The position numbers and the translations under genes were made by a program. The notes beneath the pieces were generated by a model. The model had not been told where the DNA came from and made no database searches. It worked only from the letters and a program-made list of their open reading frames with translations. This document shows positions 18,250 through 34,439 of a stretch of DNA of 64,000 nt, in pieces. The DNA is from Escherichia phage ECO07P2, in the sequence record OP172785. One strand, 5' to 3'. The first letter of the stretch is position 1. The number at the start of each line of letters is the position of its first letter.

Positions 18250-18654
18250 TTATTCCTTAAAATGTGCTTTTAACATCTGATACAAGGACCATGCATGTTC
18301 ATTATTTTCAATAGTAACTTTCATTACCGGGAATTCTGTGAAATCTTCTATCTGTTCTTGCTCTTCAGAAGCTTGGTATGGATTTTCCACTTCATCAAAG
18401 AACTCAGCTTCGTTAGTAGAGAGCCAAATAAAGTTTTCGTCAAGGATATCAGCGCCGGCACAACGTTTGAGTACACCTGTGGATGTCACAATTTTAGTAG
18501 GACGACTGAGATGGTCAACATCTAAAATTTTAAAAGGTTCCATACCTAAACGTCGTGCGTAGATTCCGTTATCAGTATGGTCTTTAATAAAAGCTTCTTG
18601 AGCTTGTTTATTTTTAAATTGATACCATTTATTAACTTCAAATCTAATAGCCAT
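18250..18654 (-). CDS. hypothetical protein (134 aa)
   Basis: Track [29 protein letters not shown]. Confidence 0.6.
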
Positions 18655-29166: not shown

Positions 29167-29367
29167 ATGGTACAAAAATTAATGGCACTTGTTAATGCCA
29201 TAAAAGGTAATAAAAAACGTATAGCTTTTACTATTTCTGCTATGGTAGGAATTTTACTTTGGAATTTTGTTTTATCGCCAATTGCTATTGCTCATGGCGT
29301 TAATATTCCAGTAATTACTCTTGATACATTCGTAGATTTAGCATTTGCTTTAGTTGGGTTAATTTAA
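29167..29367 (+). CDS. small hydrophobic protein on opposite strand (66 aa)
   Basis: Strong SD AAGGAGG 7 nt before ATG; two predicted TM segments; lies in 56-61 gap. Confidence 0.5.
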   Translation: MVQKLMALVNAIKGNKKRIAFTISAMVGILLWNFVLSPIAIAHGVNIPVITLDTFVDLAFALVGLI

Positions 29368-30392
29368 ATCTTAGCATATTTAGATAGCCGCATTTTAGCC
29401 ATCAACCCCTGCGCAATATTATTTTTCATATATTCCATAATTTGTTCAGGGGTTGCACCTTCCTTTCTAATCATATCATTAACATCTTTTGATTTCCAGG
29501 GAGATTTGTCCCAAAACATAACCCTTTCTCCTGCATCAACCAATTTAGTCATTCGTTTAATAGTGTCAGGATGACGAGGTTCATTATCTAAAACCCATAC
29601 ACGTCTATCTTTAAATGGAACAATTTCTAGGTCTAATTGACCACCTGTAATAGCTATACCATTTTCAATAAAAAGTGAATCTATAGGTCCTTCTAGAACA
29701 TATACATCACCATCTTTGACCCGTTCAACGCCATAGATTTTTGTTGCCTCAGGATAAGCTTTGATGGTGATATATTTTTGGGGAGCATCTTTCTTTAACG
29801 CACGTCCTTGAAAAGACTCAGCTTTTCCATTAGCATTATAAATTGGAATAACAAGACGAGGCTCAGGTATTTCCTTTTTGTATGTTCCTGGTGCTATACT
29901 ATTAACTAATTTAGGCCATTCGGTTGTAAACCAAAGATATTTCCATTTGTCCTTTGGAATACAACGAGCTTTTACGTATTTTATAATTGGATGGTCTTCC
30001 GCCAGTTTATCTAATCTAACACATGACGGAAGAGATTTAATTATTTTCTTCTCAGGTTGTTTAGGAAGTTCTTTAGGTTTTTCTACTGGACGACTTTTAC
30101 CTTTTTCTTTTCTTATTTCAAAGATATACTCACGATATAAATCGGGTTCAAACTCCTTTAAATATATTCCGATTGGTGCATGATAGTTACAGTTATAACA
30201 ATGAATATTTCCTTCATTATTATCGCCATAATACCATCCACGAGCTTTATTTTGGTCGGTTTTTGAATCTCCACAAACAGGGCATCTAAACCGCAATTTA
30301 AAAGTTGAACTATTATTTACTTGTGTAAATTTAGGTAAATGAGCTAATGCACGATATGCAAACTCATTATCAATCCAAGGTATTGATGACAT
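29364..30392 (-). CDS. 61: DNA primase gp61
   Basis: 342-aa ORF; zinc ribbon CPVCGD...CYNC and TOPRIM-like region; N-terminus MSSIPWIDNEFAYRALAHLPKF. Confidence 0.93.
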   Translation of the reverse strand: MSSIPWIDNEFAYRALAHLPKFTQVNNSSTFKLRFRCPVCGDSKTDQNKARGWYYGDNNEGNIHCYNCNYHAPIGIYLKEFEPDLYREYIFEIRKEKGKSRPVEKPKELPKQPEKKIIKSLPSCVRLDKLAEDHPIIKYVKARCIPKDKWKYLWFTTEWPKLVNSIAPGTYKKEIPEPRLVIPIYNANGKAESFQGRALKKDAPQKYITIKAYPEATKIYGVERVKDGDVYVLEGPIDSLFIENGIAITGGQLDLEIVPFKDRRVWVLDNEPRHPDTIKRMTKLVDAGERVMFWDKSPWKSKDVNDMIRKEGATPEQIMEYMKNNIAQGLMAKMRLSKYAKI

Positions 30393-30394
30393 TT

Positions 30395-30559
30395 TTACTC
30401 TTCTTTTTCTTTAGATTCCTCTTTTTTCTTTTTAGGAATCTGTTCAGGGCCTTTATTTACTACAGCGCCTGACGTTGTTCCAGTAGAGATATTTTCAGGA
30501 TTACTACCCGAATCTCCAGCTACCATATCTTCTTTGATAAATTCTTTATATGTTTTCAT
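30395..30559 (-). CDS. small acidic/basic protein (~54 aa)
   Basis: Below track threshold; MKTYKEFIKEDMVAGDSGSNPENISTGTTSGAVVNKGPEQIPKKKKEESKEKEE. Confidence 0.4.
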   Translation of the reverse strand: MKTYKEFIKEDMVAGDSGSNPENISTGTTSGAVVNKGPEQIPKKKKEESKEKEE

Positions 30560-30560
30560 A

Positions 30561-30610
30561 TTAACCTCTATTCATAAAAGCATTAAAAATTTGGTCATCA
30601 ATCGATGGAA
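30561..30610 (-). repeat. direct repeat copy 1 (gene 3' end)
   Basis: ttaacctctattcataaaagcattaaaaatttggtcatcaatcgatgg vs copy at 30919-30965. Confidence 0.7.
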
Positions 30611-30917
30611 CAGCAACCTTTTCTACATCATTTAGCAAATCATTAATTTCATCAGATAGCATAACACATGTACCTTTATTTCCTGTAATTGTTACTGCAC
30701 AATTACGAACGTTTTCTTTATCAAATTTTAGGTTAATATTTTCGTAGTGAAAATCCTTTAATGCCGAATATATCTTTAAAATGAAATTGTCTTTTACTAC
30801 AATAAACCCAACCTCACTATTAAAACGCGGTTCATGGAAACTGTAATAAACCTTTTCATCTATAAAATCGTATGAAATTTTTTCCATTTTTAAATATGAA
30901 AATTCAGAACTATACAT
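30561..30917 (-). CDS. hypothetical protein (118 aa), shares C-terminal tail with next gene
   Basis: Ends SIDDQIFNAFMNRG; 3' ~45 bp nearly identical to 3' end of 30919-31551. Confidence 0.55.
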   Translation of the reverse strand: MYSSEFSYLKMEKISYDFIDEKVYYSFHEPRFNSEVGFIVVKDNFILKIYSALKDFHYENINLKFDKENVRNCAVTITGNKGTCVMLSDEINDLLNDVEKVAVPSIDDQIFNAFMNRG

Positions 30918-30918
30918 A

Positions 30919-30965
30919 TTAACCTTTATTCATAAAAGCATTAAAAATTTGATCGTCAATAGAAA
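30919..30965 (-). repeat. direct repeat copy 2 (gene 3' end)
   Basis: ttaacctttattcataaaagcattaaaaatttgatcgtcaatagaaac. Confidence 0.7.
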
Positions 30966-31551
30966 CTTTTACTTTAGGCTGTTCTTCAAACGGTAATTCA
31001 TATCCACATATTACAATTTTGTGATCGATACCAAAATACACAGAAGCAATATTATTAATATTATTTTCAGTGAAATCTAAATCAACATCAATATCTTTTT
31101 GACTAACGCTCAAAGGATAATTAATACGAATAATTCGATTATCTTTAACAAAGATTCCACCGACATACTCTGTGCTGCGTTTAAAGTTTACACGTTTCCT
31201 AAATGAAAAATATTCAGGTTCTTTATGGGCTCGACTCATAGGGCTTAAAGTGTATTCCGAATATGAAATATCAAATCCTACACCTTCAATATGAGCCAAA
31301 GTATCATGATTAAACCAATTATAATCGTATGCCAAATCCATTAAATTGTAATATGTGAAAGGCACCGGATTAACATCATATGTTGTACCTTTAAAATCTG
31401 CCCAGGCAACGATTTCGTTATCTTTAACAATTACAAAAATTGTGCCAATAAGATATCCACGGTTATTTTCATTAGGTGTTATATTATAACATTGTGCATC
31501 AGGAAATTTACCGTATTTAAACGGTGGATTTTTGTGCATATAATAAATCAT
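30919..31551 (-). CDS. hypothetical protein (210 aa; 61.2 position)
   Basis: Track ORF ending SIDDQIFNAFMNKG. Confidence 0.6.
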   Translation of the reverse strand: MIYYMHKNPPFKYGKFPDAQCYNITPNENNRGYLIGTIFVIVKDNEIVAWADFKGTTYDVNPVPFTYYNLMDLAYDYNWFNHDTLAHIEGVGFDISYSEYTLSPMSRAHKEPEYFSFRKRVNFKRSTEYVGGIFVKDNRIIRINYPLSVSQKDIDVDLDFTENNINNIASVYFGIDHKIVICGYELPFEEQPKVKVSIDDQIFNAFMNKG

Positions 31552-31552
31552 A

Positions 31553-31846
31553 TTATTCGCCTGTGATTTCGGTTACGATATTTTTATTATTAAAGTTTTT
31601 ATCGCAATACAGAACATAATTATACTGCATTACACCACCAGACTTAAGTTGTTTTTGCACTTCAGCTTTCATTTCAGGACGATCACGCTCAACGATATTC
31701 ATAATATCGGCTTCAATCTGAGTTTCAACCTCAGTCTGATCTGCAGTCATAGACCACTCACACAAATCTTTGTCATAACCCGCCATAGCAGGCTGAGCAG
31801 CGCAAGAAGATAAAGCAAAAATTGCAGCAAAGATAAATTTTTTCAT
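31553..31846 (-). CDS. sp: Spackle (Sp) periplasmic protein
   Basis: 97-aa ORF with signal peptide MKKFIFAAIFALSSCAAQPAMA; size and sequence as I recall T4 Sp. Confidence 0.7.
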   Translation of the reverse strand: MKKFIFAAIFALSSCAAQPAMAGYDKDLCEWSMTADQTEVETQIEADIMNIVERDRPEMKAEVQKQLKSGGVMQYNYVLYCDKNFNNKNIVTEITGE

Positions 31847-31949
31847 GATAATCTCCTCAGTAGTTTATGTTTATAGTATCTCAATTTTCAACAAAAGTAA
31901 ACACTAGTAGAAGCAAACAGACAAATTACAATAATTGGTGATTTCAGTT

Positions 31950-32141
31950 TCATTCTTCTCCTCCATGTTGATGAACATATTCTTTTTCAAGTCTAGAGCA
32001 CAAGTTTTCATATTCAACTAATAAAAATGAATCAAGTGCGTTATTTCTATGCTGACACCGTTCTTGTAAAGAATCCATCTCTGAACGTTGTTCTTGTGTT
32101 AATAATTGATAACCTGATACTTTAGACATTTTATTCTCCAT
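31950..32141 (-). CDS. hypothetical protein (63 aa)
   Basis: Track ORF. Confidence 0.45.
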   Translation of the reverse strand: MENKMSKVSGYQLLTQEQRSEMDSLQERCQHRNNALDSFLLVEYENLCSRLEKEYVHQHGGEE

Positions 32142-32193
32142 TTACTCGTTTGTTTTGATAGGTCTATAATAACATGTTTAAAACAAAAGTAAA

Positions 32194-32448
32194 CTATTTT
32201 ATTTCCTCAAGTTCGTTAATCAATAAAAGTTCTCTGACGCTAAAAACAAAGAAAAATGTGTTCCCATCAACCAGAGCATGACCGCTAATAGAACACCCTC
32301 TGCGGAATTTAGAAACTTCACAATCTAGAACTGTAAAGGGTTTTAATCCTATGACTTTAACTGTGCGTCTATTCAGTTCACAACCACTCGCGAATTTTTC
32401 CAAATCTTCTTCTGATTTAAACTGATATTCTCTATTAACTAGCATCAT
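32194..32448 (-). CDS. hypothetical protein (84 aa)
   Basis: Track ORF downstream of promoter 32478-32509. Confidence 0.5.
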   Translation of the reverse strand: MMLVNREYQFKSEEDLEKFASGCELNRRTVKVIGLKPFTVLDCEVSKFRRGCSISGHALVDGNTFFFVFSVRELLLINELEEIK

Positions 32449-32477
32449 TTTCTTTTCTCCGCGATTAGCTGATAGAA

Positions 32478-32509
32478 TTACTATAACACAACTCTATCAG
32501 CTTGTAAAC
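32478..32509 (-). promoter_or_regulatory. early promoter GTTTAC-18-TATAGT
   Basis: Minus strand GTTTACAAGCTGATAGAGTTGTGTTATAGTAAT. Confidence 0.5.
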
Positions 32510-32511
32510 TA

Positions 32512-32811
32512 CTATTTTAAAACTTCTGTATAATCACATGTTACAAACTGTTTCTCTAACTTGACGATTTTACGAAAGTATCTTTTGCATTGGCGAATCT
32601 GCCGCTTTGTAGGGCGCACAGCAAACTTAATAAATTCCACTCGACCAAATGGAGGGCTTTCTTCTGCTGGAATATCTAATACCAATTCCCACGTATCTGC
32701 GATAAGTGCTTTGAATTGAGTATTTTTCCTTACGTTATACGGAGTAGGTTTAAATAAAACAATATGCATATTATCCTCGGCAATCCACTTCGCATACTTT
32801 CTTGTCATCAA
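32512..32811 (-). CDS. hypothetical protein (61.4 position, ~98 aa)
   Basis: Track ORF; likely ATG one codon inside TTG start; overlaps dmd 3' end. Confidence 0.5.
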   Translation of the reverse strand: MMTRKYAKWIAEDNMHIVLFKPTPYNVRKNTQFKALIADTWELVLDIPAEESPPFGRVEFIKFAVRPTKRQIRQCKRYFRKIVKLEKQFVTCDYTEVLK

Positions 32812-32953
32812 TGAAAGCTTTAACTAGCGCTTTATTAACTTCAGCATATTGAGTAGTAGCCCATTGAACGTCATCTTTCATCATTGTGATTTCTTTAGTA
32901 AACATGCTTTCATTCTTAAACCACCCCATAAAAACTACCTTTACCAATTCCAT
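32771..32953 (-). CDS. dmd: Dmd (discriminator of mRNA degradation; antitoxin against RnlA/LsoA)
   Basis: 60-aa ORF MELVKVVFMGWFKNESMFTKEITMMKDDVQWATTQYAEV; matches my recollection of T4 Dmd, directly downstream of gene 41. Confidence 0.7.
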   Translation of the reverse strand: MELVKVVFMGWFKNESMFTKEITMMKDDVQWATTQYAEVNKALVKAFIDDKKVCEVDCRG

Positions 32954-32978
32954 AAAAATCTCCTCATTTAACCGACAA

Positions 32979-33011
32979 GACTACTATACCATAGTCTTGT
33001 CGGCTTGTAAA
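32979..33011 (-). promoter_or_regulatory. early promoter with 12-bp perfect inverted repeat spanning -10
   Basis: Minus strand GTTTACAAGCCGACAAGACTATGGTATAGTAGTCTTGTCGG; arms CCGACAAGACTA / TAGTCTTGTCGG. Confidence 0.55.
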
Positions 33012-34439
33012 CTAAAATTTTAATTCATTTGCCAAAGCATCTAACTGAGCTCGAGCGGATTCGTTTCTTTGATAGCGATTCTGTTCAGCCTGAATCTGCT
33101 GTGAACCTGCTACTTCGTTCACTTCAGTTGGAGTAGAATCTTGTTCAATTTCTACCCATTTCTGATTTCCTTTTTGAACACCCATCAAAAACTTATTCCA
33201 TTTATTCTTATCACCGTATCGTGATTTGATTTGCTTAATGAGTTGTTGTTCAGCAGCTGCTAACTCCTCAGTTTCAATGACCGCAAGCATAAAATCGGCT
33301 GTTGCTGGAAGACCGGCAGATTCTGCAATATCGCTCATGTTAACATCAGAAGAATCCCAAGCTTGCTTACCAACCTGTGCTGCAGTCCAAAGAACAGTTT
33401 CGGTTTCAACAGCCAGAGCACGCAATTCTTCTGCGATGGCTTTAACAGTTGTGTAACTATTTTCTGAGTAAACTCTGATGCGGCAAGATTTACAAATACC
33501 TAGATAGTCGACAATAATGATTGTTGGAACAAAATTCTTCTTGAGCTTTAATTCATTTAAAAGCGACCGAAATGTATTAGCGTCTGCTCCACCAGTAGGA
33601 TACTGTTTAACGATTAAACGACCGAGAGTAGATTTCTCACGCCATTTTTCCATTTTTCCTTTATACTCAGCGTAAGAAATATGCCCATCATCAATGTCAT
33701 CAAGAGAAACATCAAGCATATTAGCGTCAATACGCTTAGCACAGACTTCTTCTGCCATTTCCATGGAAATGTAAAGAACATTATGTCCGAGCTGCAAATA
33801 ATCTGCTGCCAATGAACATAGACCTAATGACTTACCAACGTTAACACCAGCCATTAAAACGTTCAGTGTTCCAGTCTCAGCTCCGCCTTTAGTAATTTTA
33901 TTTAGAATTTTGAGTTTAAATGGAACCTTACGAGCTTTATTCATATAAGATAGCCAACGTGCTTCGTAGTCATCCATCCAATCATGGCCAACGTAGCTAT
34001 CAAATGAAATTGATAATGCTTGGCGCATGATGTCAGGAATAGCACCTACATCTGGCATTTTCTTATTTCGTTTTTCTGGAGGAAGCTCAGCATTAGTTTG
34101 AATTTCAATTATTTTAGATGTGGCGTTAAACATCGCCCTTTGCTGAACGTATTTTTCTGTTTCTTTTACTAACCAGCTATGGTCTTCTGGAGAATCGGTT
34201 AGTTTCGAAATAAGTGTTTTTACACCAGAATATTCTGTTTCAGTAAATGAACTATTTTCTAATGCAACATTTAACGCATTAATAGATGGAACGCTATGGT
34301 ACTCATTGACATGAGATTTAATTAATTTGAATGTATTTTTAGCTGGACCACTTTCAAAATATTCTGAATCCATATATGGCCAAACTTTTGAAAAATAAGC
34401 TTGATCAAATATGAGATGAGAAAGAATAATTTCTACCAC
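33012..34439 (-). CDS. 41: replicative DNA helicase gp41 (DnaB family)
   Basis: 475-aa ORF MVEIILSHLIFDQAYFSKVWPYMDSEYFESGPAKNTF; Walker A GVNVGKS. Confidence 0.95.
   Translation of the reverse strand: MVEIILSHLIFDQAYFSKVWPYMDSEYFESGPAKNTFKLIKSHVNEYHSVPSINALNVALENSSFTETEYSGVKTLISKLTDSPEDHSWLVKETEKYVQQRAMFNATSKIIEIQTNAELPPEKRNKKMPDVGAIPDIMRQALSISFDSYVGHDWMDDYEARWLSYMNKARKVPFKLKILNKITKGGAETGTLNVLMAGVNVGKSLGLCSLAADYLQLGHNVLYISMEMAEEVCAKRIDANMLDVSLDDIDDGHISYAEYKGKMEKWREKSTLGRLIVKQYPTGGADANTFRSLLNELKLKKNFVPTIIIVDYLGICKSCRIRVYSENSYTTVKAIAEELRALAVETETVLWTAAQVGKQAWDSSDVNMSDIAESAGLPATADFMLAVIETEELAAAEQQLIKQIKSRYGDKNKWNKFLMGVQKGNQKWVEIEQDSTPTEVNEVAGSQQIQAEQNRYQRNESARAQLDALANELKF

Follow-up and report, generated by a model that had tools for sequence, protein, structure and literature searches.

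The window analysed here is a 64,000-nucleotide stretch of Escherichia phage ECO07P2 (sequence record OP172785), a Tequatrovirus, in which two adjacent minus-strand genes with the same ending, and a direct repeat spanning that ending, lie between the genes for the primase (gene 61; 29364–30392) and the helicase (gene 41; 33012–34439) (Table 1). On the minus strand the order is 41 helicase, dmd, tifA (61.4), a goF-like gene of 84 residues, an open reading frame (ORF) of 59 residues, sp, the 210-residue gene, the 118-residue gene, 61.1 and the 61 primase. The interval holds eight genes where T4 has five, in agreement with the initial annotation, which had described an expanded interval of about eight small genes and had read Spackle and Dmd among them; both are present by their Pfam matches. 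Over a 2.8-kb region of the locus, identity to Escherichia phage GEP001 is 99.7%. The region has matches in 672 phage records, almost all of them from Tequatrovirus; only five of the 672 cover at least 80% of it, and GEP001 alone covers it fully.

Table 1. Features of the primase–helicase interval, with window coordinates.
Feature	Position	Strand	Basis of assignment
61.1, 54 residues, function unknown	30395..30559	minus	phrog_1823 E 4e-33; annotated gp61.1 in NR1 and T4
Repeat copy 1: short-paralogue tail codons SIDDQIFNAFMNRG, stop, T, ATG of 61.1 (AGAGGTTAATATG); Shine-Dalgarno GAGG inside the Arg-Gly codons	30557..30605	minus	repeat family D2
Single-domain AdfA-family paralogue, 118 residues (RB32ORF033c / HY01_0032 type)	30561..30917	minus	phrog_4122 E 1e-72; annotated '61.2' in T2
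Repeat copy 2: adfA tail codons SIDDQIFNAFMNKG, stop, T, ATG of the short paralogue (AAAGGTTAATATG)	30915..30963	minus	repeat family D2
adfA (T4 gene 61.2), anti-DarT factor A, 210 residues	30919..31551	minus	Pfam PF23813 E 7.4e-139, positions 1-211/211; phrog_3781; synteny with T4 61.2
sp (Spackle), 97 residues	31553..31846	minus	Pfam PF25676 (T4_Spackle) E 7.6e-46; synteny
Extra small ORF, 59 residues (63 from an upstream ATG at 32141), function unknown	31950..32129	minus	phrog_37915 E 3.5e-43
goF-like extra cassette gene, 84 residues	32194..32448	minus	phrog_2980 ('goF mRNA metabolism modulator') E 4.8e-20
Second promoter early stem-loop (PeSL)-like element, upstream of the goF-like gene, TTTACA-17-TATAGT and hairpin	32456..32520	minus	repeat D1; promoter scan 10/12; fold z -3.5
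tifA (T4 gene 61.4), 85 residues, ToxN inhibitor	32512..32769	minus	Pfam DUF7279 E 2e-20; 98% identical to T4 61.4; function PMC9391042
dmd (61.5), 60 residues, inhibitor of RnlA/LsoA toxins	32771..32953	minus	Pfam PF17587 E 1.6e-46; function PMC9391042
PeSL-like element upstream of dmd, early promoter TTTACA-17-TATAGT overlapping a 14-bp hairpin	32959..33023	minus	repeat D1; promoter scan 10/12; fold z -6.6

The two genes both end in SIDDQIFNAFMN(R/K)G, as had been noticed at first sight, the 118-residue protein with ...PSIDDQIFNAFMNRG and the 210-residue protein with ...VSIDDQIFNAFMNKG. The near-identical direct repeat of about 45 bp that had been placed at their 3' ends measures 49 nucleotides in a repeat search of the window, with 45 of the 49 positions identical (92%), and it reaches past the stop codon to take in the ATG of the next gene (TAA-T-ATG). 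A 46-nucleotide pattern, allowing up to three mismatches, occurs at these two sites only in the 64-kb window; the number expected from 100 shuffles is 0.00, which rules out a chance origin of the repeat.

The 210-residue gene exceeds the cutoff of the AdfA profile (460.5 bits against 27) with a full-length match to PF23813, and its AlphaFold2 (AF2) model, with a mean predicted local distance difference test (pLDDT) score of 70.5, suggests a pair of domains and, after a segment of pLDDT below 50, a C-terminal helix. In published experiments, RB69 and T4 AdfA bind the DNA ADP-ribosyltransferase toxin DarT1 and thereby neutralise it (PMC11257639, PMC9391042), and in those described in PMC11257639 the RB69 variant AdfA(R164H) binds DarT1 and rescues phage; histidine is the neutralising state in the column of RB69 residue 164. 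The window AdfA has asparagine in this column (Asn167; 31051–31053). Among 16 clusters of AdfA at 90% identity, 14 have histidine and the RB69 type has arginine, and asparagine is found only in the cluster of the window protein (94 member sequences).

The 118-residue protein had been thought to differ from its neighbour outside the tail; instead it aligns over its whole length to AdfA residues 98–210 (36% identity, BLASTP E 1e-11). Against the Pfam AdfA profile it matches positions 113–211 only, at 34.4 bits against the cutoff of 27; the precomputed Pfam assignment also lists PF23813 for the 118-residue clusters, and the PHROG families of the two proteins match each other crosswise. The AdfA proteins of T4 and RB69 have a two-domain architecture of 208–216 residues, and the 118-residue protein consists of a single domain. 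By sequence the 118-residue gene is a within-family paralogue and not the AdfA orthologue, and its homology to the entire C-terminal half of AdfA rules out a different protein with a borrowed tail. The alignment columns that are invariant beyond the tail, G37, D43, I46, V85 and E90, lie within G-x-I-x-V-K-D-N-x-I, and the tail itself (D107–M115) is invariant too.

Models of the two proteins share a core of four strands and a helix, with the terminal helix at low confidence (pLDDT 50–60). The short-protein model (pLDDT 82.7, predicted template modelling score 0.71) has one further strand at its start and a further short strand and helix ahead of the terminal helix. Its structure matches in BFVD are family members only, including a 212-residue protein of AdfA length and the 145-residue protein of VR25; a sequence search of the PDB returned no related solved structure. 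Among 1.84 billion representative proteins searched by profile, only ten clusters matched, all of the AdfA family. At an identity of at least 75%, the short gene is present in about 298 phage records, and its ratio of nonsynonymous to synonymous substitution rates (dN/dS) of 0.2–0.3 indicates purifying selection; both findings mark it as a real gene. A literature search on AdfA found no discussion of the short gene, which the Pfam profile already places in the AdfA family.

The column that determines DarT1 specificity lies in a helix that the short protein retains, where its residue is Asn72 (30702–30704). The column is variable across the family (N/H/R/D): histidine in most AdfA proteins, arginine in the RB69 type, asparagine in the window AdfA and the short protein, and histidine or aspartate in other short forms.

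Both window genes end in DDQIFNAFM(N/K)(R/K)(G/D) followed by the stop codon, and DDQIFNAFM is unchanged in all family members found, even in P0027 and P0029, whose bodies barely match. Where bodies are 17–30% identical it is the sole invariant segment, and the common C-terminal module proposed in the initial annotation is borne out to that extent. When the 145-residue Dhakavirus proteins are compared by profile, only the tail and about 17 preceding residues are picked up. In metagenomes, C-terminal occurrences of the tail peptide are all in T4-like AdfA-family proteins, and a degenerate DNA pattern of the tail finds only this locus in IMG/VR (16 contigs). All occurrences of the tail octapeptide in bacterial genomes lie in the interior of unrelated proteins (a histidine kinase, an aminotransferase), and we therefore see no sign of host mimicry. 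A likeness to clamp-binding or PCNA-interacting protein (PIP) box motifs was considered and dropped, because the glutamine and the aromatic residues are wrongly spaced for it.

The tail may serve in docking to a shared partner, in dimerisation or in folding. One alternative to the account given below takes the first of these to its limit: the tail would be a portable interaction tag docking all members on one conserved partner, either a conserved DarT-type toxin pocket or a phage or host factor, with the bodies as swappable specificity modules. The invariance of the tail across such divergent bodies, the Dhakavirus proteins in which profile comparison detects little else, and the predicted short amphipathic helix placed after a low-confidence segment all favour it, as does the high variability of the DarT1-specificity column, expected if specificity lies elsewhere. 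The partner, however, is so far only hypothetical, the helix could belong merely to the fold or to a dimer interface, and in the two-hybrid experiments described in PMC11257639 an AdfA-T18 fusion, in which the tail is buried upstream of T18, still binds DarT1, so that a free C-terminus is unneeded for that binding. On balance we regard the portable tag as rather unlikely.

The stretch from the penultimate codon through the stop to the next ATG (A[G/A]AGGTTAATATG) doubles as the Shine-Dalgarno sequence and start of the downstream gene, AGA-GGT-TAA-T-ATG placing GAGG five bases ahead of the ATG. This stop-N-start layout is held in all members except L057, which has a short spacer with its own AGAGG ahead of the ATG. 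Another alternative is that conservation acts on nucleotides, the tail being a cis-acting RNA or DNA element (for translational coupling, regulation or as a recombination hotspot) and the peptide incidental. The last codons do carry the next gene's Shine-Dalgarno sequence, stop and start in every member, the penultimate and last codons change with the downstream gene, and codons are shared in excess within the tail (p 0.018; see below). However, the synonymous codons of the tail vary freely among genera (GCT/GCC/GCA, CAA/CAG, TTT/TTC, AGA/CGA) while DDQIFNAFM stays invariant, which places the constraint on the peptide; the ribosome-binding role covers only the final 13 or so nucleotides and not the 30 upstream of them; and no structured RNA and no known RNA family (Rfam) was detected in 30000–33300. 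Selection on the nucleotides alone is, in our view, very unlikely.

We note that the final two codons track the downstream gene: AGA GGT, with GAGG, precedes 61.1, and AAA GGT or AGA GAT, each a weakened Shine-Dalgarno sequence that reads K-G or R-D in the protein, precedes a short family member (window 30557–30569 and 30915–30927; loci L012, L014, L052, L077 and L081). This dependence holds in Tequatrovirus and Dhakavirus with one exception, L049. The weakened Shine-Dalgarno sequence may lower translation of the short paralogue, or it may mark divergence of the tail itself.

Where the window pair has identical residues, the codon is also the same at 9 of 12 tail positions and at 9 of 28 body positions (Fisher p 0.018). 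Two GAY-GAY haplotypes, GAC-GAT and GAT-GAC, are each found in long as well as short tails of different genomes, and the tails of VR20 match each other without a difference over 37 nucleotides, compared with three differing sites in the related VR25. These patterns in the sequences suggest occasional exchange between tandem tails.

Three arrangements of these genes are found among natural genomes. The order sp-adfA-61.1 is found in T4 and in L006, L007, L010 and L058–L060, sp-short-61.1 in T2 (where the short paralogue is annotated '61.2') and L008, and sp-adfA-short-61.1 in the window and in NR1, Ozark, L009, G10400, L070, L071 and L081. Either allele type of adfA, of 208 or 210 residues, can be followed by the short gene or stand without it (G10400 and L081 compared with T4; the window compared with L058–L060), and the end of adfA tracks the downstream gene and not the allele: it reads AGAGG ahead of 61.1, and AAAGG or AGAGA ahead of the short gene. 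The two G10400 repeats are identical at 48 of 49 positions, and a crossover inside them gives the exact T4 sequence. The arrangements thus fit the pattern expected if a 358-bp short-gene cassette were gained or lost by recombination in the tail repeat. A part for the repeat in recombination, which the initial annotation had raised as a scar, agrees with these arrangements; the recent duplication that it offered as the other explanation is rejected below. In the phage collection the N-terminal half of AdfA is present in 486 records and adfA adjoins the short gene in about 157; the arrangement counts are approximate, as the junction search merges nearby pieces.

Two further observations concern this locus. 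In the T2-type arrangement, sp and the short gene are joined by TAA-TTAGAGGTTAGT-ATG (L004, phage T2, 2473–2500; L008, 3631–3642), which resembles the end of the AdfA tail (AGAGGTTAATATG). In Escherichia phage Elenatom (L053; locus coordinates 1866–2488) adfA is split into two short ORFs, and the tail, the junction and a downstream short paralogue of 119 residues are intact; here adfA has decayed naturally and its short neighbour persists.

Outside the last 14 codons the window pair is only 36% identical in amino acids, 45% in nucleotides and 31% at third positions. Dhakavirus has short forms of 119 and 117 residues with 44% body identity, and synonymous divergence between the Tequatrovirus and Dhakavirus short genes is saturated (dS 2.3). 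Short forms also occur in two further T4-like lineages (P0027, 125 residues; P0029, 120 residues), always directly after sp; indeed all AdfA-family members, in Tequatro-, Dhaka- and Mosigvirus-like contigs and in these two lineages, lie in a block directly downstream of sp, adjoining either sp or another member. The bodies of short forms are 17–30% identical to the C-terminal halves of AdfA, and in a neighbour-joining tree of the body alone all short forms stand apart from all of these halves; because the short forms of several lineages form this separate clade, the split between long and short forms predates the genera. The main reading of the initial annotation, in which a recent partial tandem duplication of the adfA 3' end made the short gene and left the repeat as its remnant, would suit two adjacent, homologous genes of one orientation with 92% identical 49-nucleotide ends, but is hardly tenable, being refuted by the divergence outside the tail and by the tree, in which the short orthologues of Dhakavirus and the two other T4-like lineages group away from the AdfA C-terminal halves, and contradicted by T2-type phages and those two lineages, which carry the short form only. 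The single-domain form is the more widespread in the AdfA family and is possibly ancestral, and, as several lineages carry it alone, the two-domain AdfA may be the derived form.

The account that we consider probable combines adfA and an old single-domain paralogue, a tail selected as protein and overlapping start signals, and the repeat as a cassette joint. The two genes belong to one small phage-specific family, the short gene being an old paralogue equivalent to the C-terminal half of AdfA, including the helix with the residue known to decide DarT1 binding. Protein-level selection would keep the invariant end DDQIFNAFMN(R/K)G, and its final codons, with the stop and the ATG, would double as the next gene's translation signals in a tightly packed operon. 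The tandem tails would recombine now and then, keeping their synonymous sites more alike than the rest of the genes, and the repeat would act as the joint for gain or loss of the 358-bp short-gene cassette, so that Tequatroviruses carry adfA alone (T4), both genes (the window) or the short gene alone (T2). The variable helix would give specificity, and the invariant tail a family-wide function. We see an even chance that the short protein binds and inhibits a toxin, either another DarT variant or a different toxin.

Several points weigh against this account or parts of it. T2 is described in PMC11257639 as having no adfA homologue, and T2 without adfN is DarTG1-sensitive there; since the short gene is kept in this phage, it fails, at native levels, to neutralise that DarT1. 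Deletion of adfA from T4 gave no phenotype in the experiments described in the same study, which makes the natural targets of the whole AdfA family uncertain. The amphipathic helix predicted for the tail carries low model confidence. The evidence for gene conversion consists of few informative sites and few haplotypes, and gain of the cassette cannot be read apart from its loss in direct repeats. For the T2-type junction, a simple repeat-mediated deletion joining the terminal TGAATA of sp to the TGAATA of the adfA tail was tried and rejected, as the predicted junction fails to match T2 exactly. Finally, an internal duplication within AdfA is suggestive at most: its N- and C-terminal halves align in hhalign with E 7e-4 at a probability of 26%, and the secondary structure of the AF2 model repeats.

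The remaining genes set this pair in its operon. The short paralogue's stop and the start of 61.1 are coupled. The 59-residue ORF is without counterpart in T4 and most Tequatroviruses; among the records inspected it is an annotated coding sequence in GEP001 only, and it is absent from NR1, Ozark and T4. A candidate early-promoter –35 motif (GTTTAC) lies upstream of it. The goF-like 84-residue gene resembles the N-terminus of a 134-residue ORF at 18250–18654 on the minus strand (tblastn, 34% over 41 residues, E 1.6e-4), which is probably goF; it is a second partial paralogue within the primase–helicase interval.

The two PeSL-like copies are 71% identical to each other, and both combine T4 early-promoter hexamers with a stem-loop and are repeated at cassette borders; in hexamers and hairpin they resemble the PeSL elements published for T4-type phages.

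The locus as a whole has been named an anti-toxin–antitoxin (anti-TA) island, in which RnlA is the target of Dmd and ToxN that of TifA, with DarT countered by AdfA, the product of gene 61.2 (PMC9391042, PMC11257639); further genes of the island have been proposed as antitoxin-like candidates, and recombination-driven amplification and deletion have been shown for the adjoining dmd-tifA locus of T4 (PMC9391042). Dhakavirus-like contigs (L011–L018, L049 and L077) have, besides the tifA next to dmd, a second TifA-like gene of 73 residues, 35–41% identical to the window TifA, which comes after their one or more AdfA-family genes. Because of this second TifA-like gene, more than one anti-toxin family is represented in the island by a pair of paralogues.

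Few phage inhibitors of DarT toxins are known besides AdfA, whose half-size paralogue is present in roughly 300 of the T-even-type phage records searched, including T2, which is reported to be without adfA. What is new here, the single-domain architecture, the invariant tail and the cassette joint, adds modestly to the known AdfA family, and the region provides a clean natural example of a coding repeat as cassette joint in an anti-defence island. The tail, the short protein set against panels of toxins, and the Asn/His/Arg/Asp specificity column offer experimental handles. In a wider reading, which we think quite unlikely, the invariant 12-residue helix would be a portable anchor on DarT-like toxins or on a common partner and the fast-evolving domain would pick the toxin variant; tandem one- and two-domain paralogues would widen counter-defence, and the tail would act as the joint for cassette swaps between co-infecting phages.

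Among known systems, the closest is AdfA itself (T4 gp61.2, RB69 AdfA, PF23813). The 210-residue gene is like it in full length, in its place after sp and in its C-terminal motif, and the 118-residue gene is like it in matching the C-terminal half of the profile and in retaining the helix with the DarT1-specificity column; the short gene differs in being without the entire N-terminal half, and both window proteins differ in having asparagine at that column in place of the neutralising histidine or the RB69 arginine. Compared with the anti-TA island of T4-like phages (Srikant et al. 2022, PMC9391042), the window has the same locus with the same dmd, tifA and adfA, but it adds three genes to the T4 island, namely the short AdfA paralogue, the goF-like gene and the 59-residue ORF, and its joint is a 49-nucleotide coding repeat, whereas microhomologies of 2–10 bp were reported there. 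PeSL-mediated modular shuffling in T4-type phages (PMC2839356, PMC4122927) likewise uses short conserved repeats at gene boundaries as exchange points in hyperplastic regions, and the two PeSL-like copies of the window stand on either side of the dmd-tifA unit and ahead of the extra goF-like gene; the AdfA tail repeat, in contrast, sits within coding sequence without promoter or hairpin, and would be conserved because of its peptide and ribosome-binding site. Lastly, like tandem paralogous anti-defence genes of phages (for example anti-CRISPR or Ocr/ArdA-type arrays), the AdfA family comprises small, phage-restricted proteins without cellular homologues, whose specificity positions evolve fast and whose paralogues lie in tandem in an accessory island.

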